From: a virus
Lineage: Duplodnaviria; Heunggongvirae; Uroviricota; Caudoviricetes; Peduoviridae
Strand: one strand, 5' to 3'
IMG/VR virus record: IMGVR_UViG_2541047727_000009
DNA length: 31,660 nucleotides
In this document: piece by piece, positions 4,882-28,163 of the stretch
Layout: each line of letters begins with the position of its first letter
Numbering within the stretch: position 1 is the stretch's first letter
Position numbers and translations under genes: made by a program
Notes under the pieces: generated by a model
Seen by the model: only the letters and a program-made list of their open reading frames with translations
Told to the model about the DNA's origin: nothing
Database searches by the model: none

Positions 4882-5400
4882 TCACAGGCCGATATTGCGG
4901 CGGTGTTGCTCCAGCCGGTCGACGCCGTTCACCTTCTCAATCATGTTGATGGTGTCGATTTCGACCAGCTCCTTACCGTCCATCGTCAGCCGGAAATAGG
5001 TGCAGACCACGGAGATTTTCGACTCGGTGTCTTCTCCCTGTTTGCCCTCGCCGGTGTCGATTTCTTTCTGACGTCCACGCATGACCACCTCGACGGCCAC
5101 CGTTTCGCCGGTATCGTCGCGCTGGTAAGAGCCTGCAAAACGAATCGGTACGGAATCCACACCGGTTGCGGCGTAAAGCTCCCAGATAACCGAATCCGGG
5201 AAGCCACCGAGCGACCACTCCATTGACAGCGCATCTTCATCAAGGCCGAGGTCTACCGGTGCGCTGCCGTTCATCCCCGCACCGCGATAGTTTTCGAGCT
5301 TACGGGTCAGTTTTGGCAGCGTGACGGACTTCGCGACGCCCTGATAGCTGTAGCCGTTCAGAAAGACGTTCATTAACTTGAGTTTGCGCGGCATTGCCAT
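4882..5400 (-). CDS. FII: tail tube protein FII, 172 aa
   Basis: 172-aa ORF directly downstream of the sheath gene; size and order equal P2 FII. Confidence 0.9.
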   Translation of the reverse strand: MAMPRKLKLMNVFLNGYSYQGVAKSVTLPKLTRKLENYRGAGMNGSAPVDLGLDEDALSMEWSLGGFPDSVIWELYAATGVDSVPIRFAGSYQRDDTGETVAVEVVMRGRQKEIDTGEGKQGEDTESKISVVCTYFRLTMDGKELVEIDTINMIEKVNGVDRLEQHRRNIGL

Positions 5401-5412
5401 CGGTCAGGCTCC

Positions 5413-6603
5413 TTAATTGCTGTTAACCGAGGTGACCAGATTTGCCAGGTATTTATCGGTAATACGCTGGCGCAGGGTCAGGTTTTCAAGAGGAGGCACC
5501 GGTGTATAGTCGTAGTCGATATACAGTTTTCCGGCCTTGAGGGTTTCCGCATCGTTGGATTCTTCGCTGAACCAGCAGGTCGCATCCACGATATAGCCGT
5601 TTGTTTTCAGCTCACGGAATTTGGCATTGATGCCGTCAACGATGTCGCGAATCAGCGTTGCGGTGATGGGCTTGTCCACCGCCCACATGTGCGCCTCAGC
5701 CATCGTGTCGGCCAGCACCTGCGCGGTGCGGGTGTAGTTTTCAAAGAGGAACAGCGGGTCATCGGAGCAGGTACGGTTACCCCAGAAGCGGAAACCGTCG
5801 CGGCGAATCAGCGTTGTGACGCCTGACTCGTTAAGCAGGTCAGCATCGGTGCCGGACTCCTGCAAATCCCAGAATACAGATGCGCTGATGCCGGTAACAC
5901 CGTTCACCCCGACATTGGACAGCGTTTTATGCCAGCCCTGCTCCTGGTCGATTTTAGCGCGCAGACCCAGCGCACGGGCGGTGGCATACGCGGTGGCGGT
6001 GGTACTGCTGACCGTATCCCATGCGAGGAAATCCGGCCAGATGACCATCAGCTCACGCTGGCTGAAATTCTGGCGGTAGGCTTTCACCTCGGAAATGGTC
6101 TTACAGCCCCATGCGCTGATATACCCAAAAGCGCGCAGCTTCTGACAGACTGATGCCAGTGCAACAGCCACCTCTTTGGTGTCCAGTCCCGGCACACCAA
6201 GAATACGCGGTTTAACACCGGTTACCGACTCCGCCGCCAGCAGGGCTTTCAGTCCGGTGTACTGACCGTTTTCGTCAGTGGTGCCGATGATATTGGAAAC
6301 GGTCTGCGCGAGTTTCGTTTCTTCGTCTTCGCCGGTGCCGTCTTCCACACGCACGACAACGGTGACCGGTTTTGACTGGTCGGCGATGGCCTGCAACGAT
6401 GCCGCCAGCGTGCCTTTTTTACCGGCCTTTGCAATTGCGCTCTGCACATTGGTAATCAGCACCGGTTTATTGAGGGGAAAGGTTTCCGCATCCGCATCGC
6501 TGGCCGTGCAGACCATGCCGGCAATGGCCGTGGATACGGTGGAAATGACGCGGGTGCCGTCGTTAATCTCCAGCACCTGCACGCCGTGATGATAGTCACT
6601 CAT
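5413..6603 (-). CDS. FI: contractile tail sheath protein FI, 396 aa
   Basis: 396-aa ORF, first gene of the F-E-T-U-D block; size equals P2 FI. Confidence 0.9.
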   Translation of the reverse strand: MSDYHHGVQVLEINDGTRVISTVSTAIAGMVCTASDADAETFPLNKPVLITNVQSAIAKAGKKGTLAASLQAIADQSKPVTVVVRVEDGTGEDEETKLAQTVSNIIGTTDENGQYTGLKALLAAESVTGVKPRILGVPGLDTKEVAVALASVCQKLRAFGYISAWGCKTISEVKAYRQNFSQRELMVIWPDFLAWDTVSSTTATAYATARALGLRAKIDQEQGWHKTLSNVGVNGVTGISASVFWDLQESGTDADLLNESGVTTLIRRDGFRFWGNRTCSDDPLFLFENYTRTAQVLADTMAEAHMWAVDKPITATLIRDIVDGINAKFRELKTNGYIVDATCWFSEESNDAETLKAGKLYIDYDYTPVPPLENLTLRQRITDKYLANLVTSVNSN

Positions 6604-21839: not shown

Positions 21840-21858
21840 GTGCTTTCCCCGCCTCGCC
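21840..21858. other. cos site: 19-nt cohesive-end sequence (reverse complement GGCGAGGCGGGGAAAGCAC)
   Basis: Plus strand GTGCTTTCCCCGCCTCGCC; its complement matches the P2 cohesive end as I recall it; sits ~170 bp beyond the Q stop, as in P2. Confidence 0.75.
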
Positions 21859-21915
21859 CGCCCGCTTCATGGGGCGGTTTTAATGCAGTTGCACGAACAA
21901 TCCAGATTCGCGCCA

Positions 21916-21939
21916 GCTCTGACAATATACTGTCAGAGC
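21916..21939. repeat. perfect 9-bp inverted repeat GCTCTGACA-N6-TGTCAGAGC next to cos
   Basis: Read directly from sequence; no flanking T-run, so not a canonical terminator. Confidence 0.5.
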
Positions 21940-22533
21940 AAGCACGTCTGACGCATGCAAAAAAATGCATCTTTTGTATGCAATGCAGAAATCAAACAAA
22001 TTTGAGTATAAATTAACGATGAGCCCTATGATTTTTAACTTCATCCCTAGCAGTTAACAGCAAATTAAAAGTCTTTATCTGCCTGATACTGCCCTGAACA
22101 GTAGTAACAACGATACTCAACATCACCATCATCCATTGGCCAAATGCTCATTTCGCTGCTGGGAGCCTGCGCACCACAACAATCGCAAGCAACATCAATA
22201 TCATCACTATCTTCATTCTGACAAAAAGTGCATTTGTAACCCGTAGAAGACTCATCAGAGGGAATCATTGTGTCGTTAGAACACTCAGGACATTCATAAA
22301 CTTTCCAATCGACCAATTCATAAAATTTATGCCTAACCCCATAAAAAGCTTCAGCCTCTCTTTCTTCAACTTCTTTCTTGGCTTCAGAGAGCCTATGAGA
22401 GTATTCATCAGCTAAAGTTTGAAATATCTGTAAGTTATCTGCACCGACTTCATCTTCAAGATTAAAAAGATCGAAGATATCAATAAACTCAGCTACCCCC
22501 CGGACTAGGCGTCCAATACACAAGCGCGCGTCT

Positions 22534-22537
22534 TTAG
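22534..22537. repeat. IS5 target-site duplication TTAG (left copy; right copy at 23733-23736)
   Basis: Identical 4-bp TTAG directly flanks both IS5 termini; fits the IS5 YTAR target preference. Confidence 0.7.
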
Positions 22538-23732
<1,195 letters not shown>

Positions 23733-24264
23733 TTAGGAGTAAGTCTGAATTGATAATGCTCAATATCATTTCTTAAATTCTTTATCCAAGCTATATCATT
23801 ACAAAAATCAATATCTACAAAATCAACCCCAGTTATGCCACATTTCTCACACTTAGCAAAGTTTAGTGCCTGATCTAAGGTTATCGTATATGGCCTAGAT
23901 TTCCCTTCAATGAACCTTCCTAAATCAACGCCATCCTCGATAATTTTATTATATGCGTCTAAAAGACTGATTGATTCTCGCTTTGCTCTTGTAGCTATTT
24001 GTTTATAGCAATCGGAATACAGTAAATTTTCATCTACTGTAACAATATATAACTTCAACACCAGCTCAAGAAAATGTGACAAATGCAAGATAGCAAATTT
24101 ATATTGCCGCAATTCTCCTCTCTGCCCTAACTCATACTTTGCTAAAGCTTCATTAAAACTATCAATAGCATTCTCTTGTAAATCCAGTTGATATTCCATT
24201 ACATCACCTAAAAATTTCATATTTATATGAGTGCAGAAAACCATTCAGCACTCATTGCTTATAA

Positions 24265-24996
24265 TCAATTATCTAATATTGATACAACCTCTCCCGTTCG
24301 TATGTCGACGCGCGCAGCTATAGTCTGCTTAACCACTCCACCATAAGCATTAGTACCGCGAAACGTAGTTTTCACAATAGCGTACGGGTCTTTATTCAAA
24401 ACCAGATGATATACCGTTGACACATGTTTATAAGATGAATCATCGTTCATATTATCTTTAATTAGTTTTTCCAATGGACGATAAGAACCATCCCAACCAC
24501 TAAAATTACTCTGAAATGTATCAAGATTGATTTTATTGTTTAGTGAATTCGGGTCATTTTCATAATCATTAAAGCACCACCCAAGAACATCACCGAGTTT
24601 CAACTCATCATCTTTGGTAAATGTATACTCACTCATGCAGGCATAAAACGCATCTGACGCGGTGGCTGGAACTTCCTTAAAATCAATGTAACTATTCACA
24701 ATATCGTGTCGTGTTTTCTTTGACTCGTTCCGATATTCCTTGAGTGTTTTTTCCCCATATTCGAATGTTTTTTGGACTTTGTGTTCTGCAACGGTTGATG
24801 TTTCAGTTTTATCAACTGGCTGGCTTTTTTCTGTTGGATAGAGTATTGAACCAATTATGCTCAATACAAAACCTCCTCCGAGATAAACCGCACTTGCACG
24901 TTTGCGGTTTGGCATTCGCACCAGTGATGGCTTGATTAACCCGATGAAGAAAGCAACGAAAAAAGCGAGTGATAGAAAAGCGATTATAGTATCCAT
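24265..24996 (-). CDS. hypothetical membrane-anchored protein (two N-terminal TM helices plus ~180-aa hydrophilic domain), 243 aa from internal ATG
   Basis: ATG at 24996 preceded by AGGA; hydrophobic stretches IIAFLSLAFFVAFFIGLI and VYLGGGFVLSIIGSILY; stop lies 65 nt upstream of the HEPN-like gene start, same strand; AT-rich. Confidence 0.65.
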   Translation of the reverse strand: MDTIIAFLSLAFFVAFFIGLIKPSLVRMPNRKRASAVYLGGGFVLSIIGSILYPTEKSQPVDKTETSTVAEHKVQKTFEYGEKTLKEYRNESKKTRHDIVNSYIDFKEVPATASDAFYACMSEYTFTKDDELKLGDVLGWCFNDYENDPNSLNNKINLDTFQSNFSGWDGSYRPLEKLIKDNMNDDSSYKHVSTVYHLVLNKDPYAIVKTTFRGTNAYGGVVKQTIAARVDIRTGEVVSILDN

Positions 24997-25425
24997 AGCT
25001 ATCCTTTTTGCATCATCCACATAAAAAATCGACCTCATGTTAGCAACAGGATGCTTACTTTTGAATATTTGTAAGTTGTTAGCTCTCCAACCTAACTCCT
25101 TTCAACCGTTAAAAACCGGCACCAACGCAGTAAAAATATGTCTGTCAACTAACGCCTCGCTTCGCTCGTTGTTCAACCCCGCCAGCCCTGAAAACAAGTT
25201 TCACGACTGGCGGCGTTCTCTATCGTCTGCGTGGTGGTGGCGCAACTCTGGACTGACCGATATAGTTAAGCCGCCCGTAATTATCCCGGACTATTTCGGC
25301 ACACCCGACCAGCTCATCGGGCGTCAGATTTTCGTTGACCATAATCCGCTGTAAACGCTGAACAATAGCCATCAGCCTGATATTTTTAGTTTTATGGTGC
25401 GGTATCTCGCTTGGTATTCTGTGCA

Positions 25426-25881
25426 TTATCCAAGCCACCCGTTTTGCTGTGCACGCTCCATCTGTTCATCTGAATAGTTCCATGCTCCATCCGTGGCAAC
25501 CATTGCCCCGCCAGACATCCCCGTCTCTGGTTCATACATAACAGCAAGGCCGAGCTGATGCATAATTTCATGATTAATTCTGAATACCAGACCACGCTCA
25601 CTAAGTTCTTTCCAGTTCACAATCTCATATGCGCCTGTATTAAGCAGCTCAATACTTAGCAAGACATAATCTTCCAGCCAGTCTGACAGGTCAGTAACAT
25701 CTGTTATCCGGGCTTCAACCTTTCGCCCCGTATACACACCCTGCACCCATTCATGCAAAATCAACGTGTCCCCGTGCTCATAATTACGGTCATTTTTCCT
25801 AAACTCTGCGCGTTTCTTTCCTTCCAGCACAAGGTCGAAATATTTTGCGTGCAGCTTTACCTCGTGAATTTTTGCCATCAT
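25426..25881 (-). CDS. ASCH/PUA-like (DUF3850-like) protein with C-terminal HExxH motif, 151 aa, translationally coupled to gene A
   Basis: ATG at 25881 overlaps the A stop (ATGATG) with GGAG 8 nt upstream; N-terminus KIHEVKLHAKYFDLVLEGKKRAEFRKNDRNYEHGDTLILHEW resembles ASCH-fold domains as I remember them; C-terminal INHEIMHQLGL carries HExxH. Confidence 0.65.
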   Translation of the reverse strand: MMAKIHEVKLHAKYFDLVLEGKKRAEFRKNDRNYEHGDTLILHEWVQGVYTGRKVEARITDVTDLSDWLEDYVLLSIELLNTGAYEIVNWKELSERGLVFRINHEIMHQLGLAVMYEPETGMSGGAMVATDGAWNYSDEQMERAQQNGWLG

Positions 25882-28163
25882 GTCCACTCCATTACTGTTG
25901 AGAATCCCGGCCACTCATCAGCGACCGGATACGTGAATTTTTTCCCGTCATAATTTACGGTTGCCCCACGCGCCAGCGCCTCAAGCTCCCATCGCTGCGG
26001 CCTGATACCGTTCTGAGCAAGGTCAACGCGGATACGGGTGATTTGCAATCGTTCCGGCCGGGTCAGTCTGGCCGATGGTGCAATTTCATGCGGTTTTAAC
26101 GGGCTTCCGTTTCTTTGCTGACGATTTGGCGTTCCCAGCCCGTGTTTTAATGCGCCCCTGAGCGCCTTCACGACCTCCGGCTCATTCCATTCGATAACAC
26201 CGTCATCAACCAGATTAAGCACTGCTGCGGCGTGCTCAGAAGGTGTGGGAGCCGGTAACGAAGTATCACCACCGGTGACCTTTCCACAGTTATTGACAGG
26301 ACTCCGAGGCGCGGCGATGCCGCTTTTTAAAGTCAAAGGCTCAACGACCGGAACTTTCGGCACAATGCGCCAGTCCGTCGTTCTGGTGATATGAATATGA
26401 CGCGCGCCGAGATGCGGCGCGTAAATGCCGACCACTCTCTCGACTTCTTCCTCGTACTCGTTAACGTCATCCGACGGGCTACGGGCAACCCTGACAGTCT
26501 GACAATCGCGCGGGACATTTGCCCCACCCTGCGCGCTGATATACAACGCAAAATCACCACTGTCTGCAGCAGCGCGAGCAGCCTCGACGCGTTCGTCAAA
26601 CTCATCAGCAATACTGACGCCGCGAGGCAATTTGCGTAGTTCACGGTAAGCCCCCATTGTCGGCAGGCCAACCGTTTTAAATTGCGGGATGCGCCACGTT
26701 GACGCCCATGCGGTAACAGCCGCCGCTGTGTCTTTCAGCGGTCTGCCGGTATCGTTATCGAGCTGACCATCCAGTGCATAGCCGTCGATGTTTTTTGAAA
26801 TGTATTTCGCGATATATCCCGCAGCACCGCCCCGGTTAAGGTGTTTTGCCTGAAAACGGTTTCGCGCGGCTCCTCTTTCGTCGCCATCCTCTTTGAGCGC
26901 ATAGCGACGCATGATTTCGATAATCTGGTTGCGCTGGCGTGGATTACAAAAAAGCATCATATGCCAGTGCGGCGTTCCGTCGTGGTGTGGCTCGACGACA
27001 CGCAAACCGTAGGCCTGTAAATCATTATCCTTGAATGCCGTGCGCATCAGGCTCCAGATACGGCAGAGATAACGCTGCGCATCCTTTGGATTAAATGCCT
27101 CATCGTTCCAGCCGTGATTAAGCTGAACGGTTTTACTTTCGCCTTTTCCGACCTGACGTGTCGGGTGATACTTTGACGGCGCGGTCAGCGTGATAAACAT
27201 CCCCACATCACCCTCTGCGGCGGCGTAACGCTCAATACCGGCAATGGTGTTCATCAGCTCCATCCGGCGAATTTCAGGATTAGAAATACTGCCCATCACC
27301 TTACTGATAAGGTCGATGCGCTCGCCGGTTTCCCTGTTTTCAAGGTCACACGATTTAAGAAATTCCAGATTTGCCTGGCGGCGCGCACGCACATCACGAA
27401 TGGCATGTTTACTGGCATAAGGAGAACGGTCTTTATTGACCTCCCCGACAGCAATCAGTAACGCCTCATGCCAGCGCATACGCTGGCCTTTAAGCTGATG
27501 AGTCCACCACTCATCGTTAAACAGGCGGGCAATGGCAGAATATGCCTGCCTCGTGGTCATCTGTCCTTTACGGTATTTTTTCCAGTAGAGCGGGGAAATA
27601 TTGAAAGCACGTGCAGCGCCAGCAACATGACCATAGAGGTGAGCCTGCGCCTCATCCGTAAACAGCGATTCTTTTTCGCCATGTGCATCAACCCAGGCAT
27701 CGCAGAGTTCCTCATACATCATGAAAAGCTGCGATGAGATACGGGCAGCAAACTTTTTCAGCTCCTTGTCATTCATTCCTGGCAGGCGCGCATAGTGGTC
27801 ACGCTCTGCCAGAAACAGCAACGACGCGTCGGTGTTCATTTCATGGCGCTGATTCACACGCTCAATGCGCGGCCATAAACGACGCTGAAAAGTGGATGTG
27901 AGGAAATAAAACCCGTGCACCGGGCTTTTATTGCGCCGGATGTAGTCATAGCGTGAAGTAAACAGCGAGCGCAAAAAGTAAGGCAGGCGGTTAATCGTGG
28001 ATAAAACACCTTGCACCTGACGCATCTCGTCACGTGTAAGGGGTCTTTCGCGCCCGACAGCCTCGCGTGGCGCGTTCCATGCATAAGCACCGGTAAACGC
28101 CTTACCGGTGCCTGCGGCAAATGCTGACGGAGGGACAAAACGCCCGGAGGCTTTAACGGCCAT
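25878..28163 (-). CDS. A: replication initiation protein A (rolling-circle initiator), 761 aa from internal ATG
   Basis: Large ORF downstream of B and four small orfs; ATG at 28163 gives 761 aa (P2 gpA size); ORF-track start at 28205 is an alternative. Confidence 0.85.
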   Translation of the reverse strand: MAVKASGRFVPPSAFAAGTGKAFTGAYAWNAPREAVGRERPLTRDEMRQVQGVLSTINRLPYFLRSLFTSRYDYIRRNKSPVHGFYFLTSTFQRRLWPRIERVNQRHEMNTDASLLFLAERDHYARLPGMNDKELKKFAARISSQLFMMYEELCDAWVDAHGEKESLFTDEAQAHLYGHVAGAARAFNISPLYWKKYRKGQMTTRQAYSAIARLFNDEWWTHQLKGQRMRWHEALLIAVGEVNKDRSPYASKHAIRDVRARRQANLEFLKSCDLENRETGERIDLISKVMGSISNPEIRRMELMNTIAGIERYAAAEGDVGMFITLTAPSKYHPTRQVGKGESKTVQLNHGWNDEAFNPKDAQRYLCRIWSLMRTAFKDNDLQAYGLRVVEPHHDGTPHWHMMLFCNPRQRNQIIEIMRRYALKEDGDERGAARNRFQAKHLNRGGAAGYIAKYISKNIDGYALDGQLDNDTGRPLKDTAAAVTAWASTWRIPQFKTVGLPTMGAYRELRKLPRGVSIADEFDERVEAARAAADSGDFALYISAQGGANVPRDCQTVRVARSPSDDVNEYEEEVERVVGIYAPHLGARHIHITRTTDWRIVPKVPVVEPLTLKSGIAAPRSPVNNCGKVTGGDTSLPAPTPSEHAAAVLNLVDDGVIEWNEPEVVKALRGALKHGLGTPNRQQRNGSPLKPHEIAPSARLTRPERLQITRIRVDLAQNGIRPQRWELEALARGATVNYDGKKFTYPVADEWPGFSTVMEWT

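Follow-up and report, generated by a model that had tools for sequence, protein, structure and literature searches.

The open reading frame on the minus strand at positions 25426..25881 of the Peduoviridae sequence analysed here (31,660 nt, referred to below as the window) is, as judged by sequence comparison, the intact form of P2 orf91, an accessory gene that ends the early operon of P2-like phages. Its product (151 amino acids, followed by the stop codon) consists of an N-terminal DUF3850/ASCH PUA-like domain (residues 5-77, 25651..25869) and a C-terminal DUF7415 domain (residues 86-146, 25444..25626), and we refer to the full-length orthologue of P2 orf91 encoded in the window as the ASCH-DUF7415 protein. 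The protein, its ASCH annotation, the DUF7415 domain and the position of the gene are already known from public databases and from the supplement of a hotspot survey (PMC9122126); since there is a RefSeq entry, a Pfam model for each of the two domains and a listing in that survey, the finding as such matters little.

The reading frame is tightly linked to replication gene A, the rolling-circle replication endonuclease gene (25878..28163, minus strand), which lies directly upstream in the same early operon. Gene A lies inside the stretch with 97.5% DNA identity to P2, and its counterpart in a 99%-identical locus (L001) is annotated by RefSeq as a ‘replication endonuclease’ of 2286 nt. The junction between the two genes (25876..25890, minus strand), read directly from the sequence, is GGAGTGGACATGATGG in the 5' to 3' direction. 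The gene A stop codon TGA occupies 25880..25878, and the first ATG of the downstream gene (25881..25879) forms a 4-nt ATGA overlap with it; the second ATG (25878..25876), which is the start chosen by RefSeq, overlaps gene A by 1 nt. A GGAG sequence at 25890..25887 is found 5 nt 5' of the first ATG. The initial annotation had described exactly this arrangement, an ATGATG across the A stop with GGAG upstream, which is correct on the minus strand, and the stop/start overlap supports the tight linkage to gene A that it proposed. On the downstream side, the ATG of a conserved partner gene, a 68-aa ORF (25220..25426, minus strand; RefSeq WP_004099444; phrog_11386, E=9.7e-38), overlaps the TAA stop as TAATG. 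Thus, through the TGA/ATG and TAATG overlaps, the reading frames of gene A, the ASCH-DUF7415 gene and the 68-aa ORF are chained one to the next. A promoter and terminator scan, in which counts were at the level of shuffled sequence, showed no terminator between these three genes, and Rfam and tRNA scans of the whole window were empty. From its second ATG onward the protein is identical to RefSeq WP_004099442, and the DNA is 100% identical in E. coli GN04171, where the gene is annotated as ‘DUF3850 domain-containing protein’. A single PHROG of unknown function, phrog_1812, matches across the whole protein (E=1.5e-82).

The relation to P2 is defined by a homology breakpoint within the gene. In a blastn comparison of P2 with the window, 97.5% identity extends through the early operon down to 25658, in codon 75 of the ASCH-DUF7415 gene, and resumes at 21840..21887, which is cos; the intervening segment of the window (21888..25657) is replaced in P2 by its own orf91 tail, tin and old. 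P2 Orf91 (NP_046796, ‘DUF3850 domain-containing protein’) is encoded by the same gene in the same position with the same 4-nt overlap with A, an overlap that is also found in the P2_4A7b annotation. Its 75 N-terminal residues are identical to those encoded in the window at 72 positions (96%), but after codon 75 it continues into an unrelated tail of 34 residues and has no DUF7415 domain, whereas the gene in the window is intact. The domain is missing from P2 Orf91 since the tin/old segment starts within the gene. Full-length copies are the more frequent: of 5426 complete E. coli genomes, 346 have the whole gene, whereas in 34 the matches are partial only (for instance, to nt 1-224). The initial annotation had placed the gene where P2 has orf91 and called it larger, which is correct but understated, as orf91 is a shortened version of this very gene. 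Since P2 carries only codons 1-75 joined to an unrelated tail, the C-terminal half is dispensable in P2 and the gene probably non-essential. Our literature searches on orf91, and on ASCH domains in prophage or anti-defence contexts, found no functional data.

The location of the gene raises the question of whether it is part of the phage backbone or cargo of the gpA-gpQ hotspot, that is, a variable defence gene expressed from the prophage as a lysogenic-conversion function outside the lytic replication operon. The gene does lie inside the interval that defines the P2 hotspot, and it is tabulated there: the survey lists WP_004099442 as ‘DUF3850/ASCH’, the first gene in loci with three or more distinct sets of genes downstream, and also tabulates the exact arrangement of the locus in the window, with its IS5-type transposase (PMC9122126 supplement). 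Moreover, relative to P2, the half of the gene that encodes DUF7415 falls in the replaced segment. Nonetheless, the gene shares its strand with A, which it overlaps, whereas the bona fide defence genes of P2, tin and old, run the other way from a promoter of their own, and a PADLOC scan of the protein gave no match to a defence family at E values up to 0.01. Its GC content (47-50%) is near that of the backbone (52-57%), while the downstream cargo is AT-rich (34-40% GC). The gene is also conserved where the genes downstream of it vary: P2-like prophages of Enterobacter have gpA followed by genes for an ASCH-DUF7415 protein (55% identical) and a homologue of the 68-aa protein (61% identical) and differ in the genes beyond, although in these orthologues the gene begins 15 nt after A rather than overlapping it. 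We therefore reject the defence cargo reading and consider it very unlikely to be right. Based on the overlap with A, the GC content, the kept gene order and the changing cargo, the gene is better described as a conserved backbone gene that borders the hotspot, with the P2 boundary cutting through it. Indeed, as the tin/old segment starts inside orf91, the orf91 of the P2 reference is a truncated allele, and the gpA-proximal boundary of the hotspot would be better drawn after or within this gene than at gpA.

The assignment of the N-terminal half to the ASCH/PUA-like superfamily, made in the initial annotation, is borne out by three kinds of evidence: Pfam scores, similarity to a solved structure and an intact signature motif. 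The protein scores well above the Pfam cut-offs for both DUF3850 (PF12961; 64.8 bits versus 22.9, E=8.4e-18) and ASCH (PF04266; 41.8 bits versus 21.2, E=1.8e-10). In PDB searches, residues 4-79 match 3IUW, a DUF3850 structure solved by structural genomics, over 76 residues (E=1.4e-13; profile 2.5e-16). The only other match, using either the full-length protein or the ASCH domain as query, was a marginal one to 1XNE in the PDB profile search (E=0.11), and the C-terminal half was left unaligned. The AlphaFold2 (AF2) model has strands at residues 5-11, 25-28, 39-46, 49-64 and 72-79 and a helix at 12-19. The ASCH octapeptide, defined as GxKxx[E/T/S]xR (bioRxiv 10.64898/2026.02.27.708502), is present as GKKRAEFR at residues 21-28 (25798..25821, minus strand), in the form GxKxxExR with G21, K23, E26 and R28. 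The Lys, Glu and Arg of the octapeptide are retained in 36 of the 39 DUF3850 relatives that we retrieved, while in 3 the Glu is replaced by Leu; this replacement, which occurs in three orthologue lineages, counts against universal catalysis.

What this domain might do is suggested by other domains of the PUA superfamily, which recognise a modified base that has been flipped into a pocket (PMC11037411). The ASCH activities with experimental support concern N4-acylcytidine and RNA. According to a 2026 preprint (bioRxiv 10.64898/2026.02.27.708502), ac4C is stripped from tRNA by 19 ASCH proteins, several of them of the ‘GKER’ type, and the Lys and Glu/Thr of the octapeptide are essential; no DUF3850 protein is among the ASCH proteins with ac4C activity described in the accessible part of that preprint. 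The octapeptide of the window-encoded protein is of the ‘GKER’ type, and its Lys and Glu occupy the positions shown to be essential in TthASCH, which is one of the characterised ASCH enzymes along with YqfB, EOLA1 and TRIP4-ASCH, but its identity to these enzymes is too low to be picked up by sequence search, and DUF7415 is an additional C-terminal domain that sets it apart from them. Related proteins are the phage ParB-CTPase-DUF3850 fusions (phrog_986, ‘RNA-binding protein’), which have a homologous DUF3850 (E=1.7e-42) and, like the ASCH-DUF7415 protein, are enriched in phages and prophages. These fusions differ in their partner and linkage: they carry an N-terminal ParB-CTPase and are linked to parA, whereas the protein studied here carries a C-terminal DUF7415 and is linked to gpA.

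The C-terminal half is a distinct domain, which matches the Pfam model DUF7415 (PF24187) at residues 87-129 with 54.0 bits against a cut-off of 27 (E=1.9e-14); an NCBIfam scan of the protein gave no match, and a literature search for DUF7415 found no papers. The two halves of the protein each match PHROGs that hold just one of the two domains. The full-length AF2 model, built from a 44-sequence alignment, likewise consists of two domains, with a mean pLDDT of 84 and a low pTM of 0.51, and residues 81-151 modelled alone (71 residues) gave a pLDDT of 93.2 and a pTM of 0.77. In the model, DUF7415 is arranged as a helix (90-95), a second helix (98-110) that carries N103 to H108, a beta-hairpin and a final helix. 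Comparison of this model with the PDB using Foldseek returned only noise (best E=2.9, TM 0.37), and the matches among the BFVD viral models were DUF7415 phage proteins only (TM 0.7-0.84), including a 64-aa fragment, Wphi Gp92, that is 86% identical to the DUF7415 domain of the window-encoded protein. These fold searches indicate that DUF7415 resembles no known fold and leave a zincin fold unsupported.

To assess conservation, we used residues 81-151 as the query in a HMMER search, which yielded 195 representative clusters at E ≤ 0.001; all retrieved proteins were realigned to the HMM with no preselection for any motif and were thinned until 42 domains were left, all pairs of which fall below 60% identity. 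Across these 42 domains, N103 and G111 are 100% conserved, G97 is conserved in 98%, H108 and S123 each in 95%, and P109 and D131 each in 86%. The family motif can be written as G-L-h-x-(R/K)-I-N-x-(E)-(I/V)-(L/M)-H-P-(L/I)-G-L-A ... G-x-S-x-G ... D-G-x-W-x-Y, and the residues that we treat as family-invariant (N103, G97, H108, G111, S123 and D131) are all present in the ASCH-DUF7415 protein. DUF7415 proteins of T4-, T5- and P2-like phages (phrog_3954, phrog_2502, phrog_33705) are predicted to adopt the same fold and share the invariants N103, H108, G111 and S123, but most members of the family are standalone or have other fusion partners. The strict conservation of N103, H108, S123 and D131 is no less compatible with a ligand-binding or catalytic site than with a passive adaptor. 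The matches of some T5-like proteins to DUF7415 fall in two stretches, and we considered a pseudo-dimer; this was rejected, since the first stretch is too degenerate.

The feature of DUF7415 that first draws the eye is an HExxH string, HEIMH (H104-E105-I-M-H108; residues 104-108, 25558..25572, minus strand). The initial annotation was right that the string is present, and proposed that it could form a small metal-binding or peptidase-like module, with a downstream Glu (E117) completing the site; in this reading, the protein would hold a small zinc site or a minimal metallopeptidase, targeted by the ASCH domain. The string does lie in a structured and conserved region, on the well-modelled helix 98-110 (pLDDT 93), H108 is 95% conserved as noted above, and 32 of the 42 domains have an acidic residue at position 105. 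The motif itself, however, is not what is conserved. Within HEIMH, H108 is the sole residue kept family-wide, beside the neighbouring N103. Position 104 is His in just 9 of 42 domains (21%), and elsewhere is Lys (12), Arg (8), Asn (4) or also Thr; position 105 is Glu in 27 (64%), with Lys in 6 and Asp in 5; and position 117 varies among Asp, Asn and Glu. Moreover, when this protein is shuffled, 2% of the resulting sequences contain an HExxH string, a rate at which a phage-sized window should have about one such string in its genes by chance. The likeness to zincin metallopeptidases is confined to a five-residue string on a helix; unlike in zincins, homologues conserve neither the motif nor a third ligand, the domain shows no fold similarity to a zincin or any other solved structure, and no peptidase family in Pfam or NCBIfam matches the protein. 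The HExxH spelling is peculiar to the P2-type subfamily, and we regard it as coincidental within that one subfamily. The metallopeptidase idea is largely refuted by these conservation data, and we now consider it exceedingly improbable.

A different indication of function comes from the genomic company of DUF7415. The domain occurs in 802 phage records, and many of its carriers are standalone proteins of 60-130 aa encoded in the early or nucleotide-metabolism regions of virulent phages. In the roughly 10 loci that we inspected by hand, DUF7415 genes recur beside genes for replication, DNA methylation and nucleotide metabolism. In a Lelliottia P2-like prophage (L004), the DUF7415 gene comes right after a Toprim primase-type replication gene, with a 1-nt overlap, and precedes a Dam methylase gene; in a second locus (L020), it directly follows a gene for a Toprim-type replication protein; in a 186-like prophage (L006), it lies between a gene for a DksA-type zinc finger and Dam plus gpA; in another locus (L008), it follows a C5 methylase gene; and in phiO18P, it is one gene past a GPA-type rep gene. 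A Jiaodavirus carries DUF7415 between nrdD and nrdG, KP15 carries it near a Nudix hydrolase gene, and a T5-like phage has two adjacent DUF7415 genes between nrdD/Sir2/HAD and the gene for an origin-binding protein. The exception is phiCTX, in which DUF7415 lies between L and X, genes of the late operon, away from replication genes. Fusion partners point in a similar direction: among 135 representative proteins, DUF7415 is joined to dATP/dGTP pyrophosphohydrolase (3 proteins), to thymidylate kinase, to an Rv2179c-like 3'-5' exoribonuclease and to DUF3850. In one protein (P0158), DUF7415 precedes DUF3850, the reverse of the order in the window; the existence of both orders suggests that ASCH and DUF7415 were joined at least twice, independently. 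A further protein (P0064) has an N-terminus homologous to the 68-aa neighbour (E=1e-8) that is fused via a ClpX-type zinc finger to DUF7415, which suggests a functional link between the 68-aa protein and DUF7415. DUF7415 thus appears to be a strongly conserved, phage-only domain that recurs with replication and nucleotide-metabolism genes.

The presence of methylase genes in these neighbourhoods bears on a reading in which the protein senses methylated DNA (6mA, or 4mC/5mC) through its PUA-like domain and, with gpA, couples methylation state to replication. ASCH domains were predicted to be 6mA readers (Iyer 2016, cited in PMC11037411), DUF7415 genes adjoin Dam-type methylase genes in L004 and L006 and a C5 methylase gene in L008, arrangements of ‘DUF3850/ASCH + DNA_methylase’ occur in the gpA-gpQ interval, and DUF3850 and methyltransferases alternate as partners in the phage ParB fusions. 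On the other hand, the 6mA prediction for ASCH is experimentally unconfirmed (PMC11037411), the supported activities are those on N4-acylcytidine and RNA, and in the window no phage methylase adjoins the ASCH-DUF7415 gene. We consider a methylated-DNA reader rather improbable.

The abundance of small early DUF7415 proteins may also be read as a sign of an anti-defence or host-takeover factor, in which ASCH or DUF7415 would capture or degrade a modified nucleotide or a host immune signal, or a host defence protein would be inhibited by DUF7415. Such a role would explain the standalone early proteins in virulent T4-like and T5-like phages, and it would be in keeping with the 802 phage records, with the fusion of DUF7415 to MazG-like pyrophosphohydrolases and with the location of the gene at the border of the P2 defence hotspot; the paper on ParB-DUF3850 proteins speculates on roles of this kind for phage DUF3850 fusions. 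However, the protein matches no known anti-defence protein, the company of DUF7415 is that of replication and nucleotide genes rather than known anti-defence clusters, and P2, which lacks the DUF7415 half, is still a successful phage. This possibility seems to us unlikely, if worth keeping in mind.

The reading that we prefer is that of a non-essential early accessory protein, in which an ASCH domain that binds a base or nucleotide is joined to a DUF7415 adaptor, and we judge this general picture to have about an even chance of being correct; any particular substrate is far less probable than that. The product would consist of two independently folding modules. By homology, the pocket of the N-terminal DUF3850/ASCH PUA-like beta-barrel would take a flipped-out base or nucleotide, probably of the N4-modified cytosine type, from RNA, from single-stranded DNA or from the free pool, and the barrel may bind that base or deacylate it. 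From the neighbourhoods and fusions, we infer that DUF7415, a phage-restricted small alpha/beta module, may be a shared adaptor or ligand-binding part, which would tie nucleotide- and nucleic-acid-processing enzymes to the replication and nucleotide-metabolism machinery of the phage. The co-translated 68-aa protein possibly acts together with DUF7415.

The comparisons presented here have several consequences for how this gene is viewed. An eye-catching HExxH motif fails the test of conservation. The reports of ASCH proteins as ac4C erasers offer a concrete and cheap assay for P2 orf91, which is a 25-year-old orphan gene. A bolder reading is that of a phage-encoded eraser of modified cytosine, in which the invariant Asn, His, Ser and Asp of DUF7415 would form the core of a new domain that binds a ligand or acts as a catalyst; we regard this as a long shot. 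If it were true, N4-acylated or otherwise modified cytosine would be removed from host tRNA or from the nucleotide pool, and production of the protein together with the replication initiator would condition the cell, or its dNTP pool, for phage DNA synthesis. DUF7415 would then be a domain with which phages equip enzymes that act in nucleotide and base metabolism.

Comparison with phage P2 places the edge of the variable hotspot between the gpA and gpQ genes within the target gene itself (ORF 25426..25881, minus strand). P2 homology stops at position 25658, which corresponds to codon 75 of the target gene, and the next match is found only at cos (21840..21887); thus, the tin/old boundary lies inside the target gene, rather than at the end of gene A. 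The reference P2 orf91 (5317..5646 of the P2 locus) is a 3'-truncated allele.

The target gene is followed by a 68-aa ORF (25220..25426, minus strand; phrog_11386), the start of which overlaps the target, beginning at the final base of its stop codon (TAATG). This ORF had no match in Pfam, and a homologue with 61% identity occupies the same position in Enterobacter prophages. We also found that P0064, a collected relative of the target C-terminal domain with the arrangement ClpX-zinc-finger-DUF7415, has an N-terminus homologous to a segment of the 68-aa ORF. The product of the 68-aa ORF is probably a functional partner of the target protein.

The block at about 22000..25200 has a GC content of 34-40%, compared to 52-57% for the phage backbone, and such an AT-rich composition typifies hotspot cargo gained by horizontal transfer. 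This block includes a 257-aa ORF (24265..25038, minus strand; 243 aa in the RefSeq version) that matches phrog_3403, a family without an assigned function. The window also carries a 1195-bp IS5 element (22538..23732) with inverted ends GGAAGGTGCGAA..., flanked by a TTAG target duplication (22534-22537 and 23733-23736). Two ORFs, of 179 aa (23705..24244) and 152 aa (22065..22523; both minus strand), border the element; they cover positions 1-157 and 160-311 of phrog_20824, respectively, and are the halves of a single 311-aa gene split by IS5 in the window, the intact counterpart of which is present in E. coli GN04171 (WP_004099450). The N-terminal half matches the PADLOC candidate defence model PDC-S64 (E=7e-15), and the match of the C-terminal half to this model is weak (1e-4). 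The split gene is a candidate P2-hotspot defence gene, inactivated by the IS.

In P0158, a 191-aa metagenomic representative, DUF7415 (residues 4-44) precedes DUF3850 (residues 94-166), the reverse of the domain order in the target, which indicates that the two domains were joined by independent fusions. A 64-aa protein annotated in phage Wphi, 'Gp92' (BFVD Q7Y4B6), shares 86% identity with part of the target DUF7415 domain; the gene may have a different split or truncation in Wphi.

At three inspected loci, from a P2-like prophage of Lelliottia (L004, 5001..5444), a 186-like prophage (L006, 5001..5408) and an unclassified phage (L008, 2807..3502), the DUF7415 gene overlaps or adjoins a DNA methyltransferase gene (Dam-type D12 in two cases, C5 in one). 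Replication genes of two unrelated types, encoding a GPA nuclease and a Toprim primase, also overlap or adjoin DUF7415 at these loci. DUF7415, a methylase and a replication gene may constitute a recurring neighbourhood.
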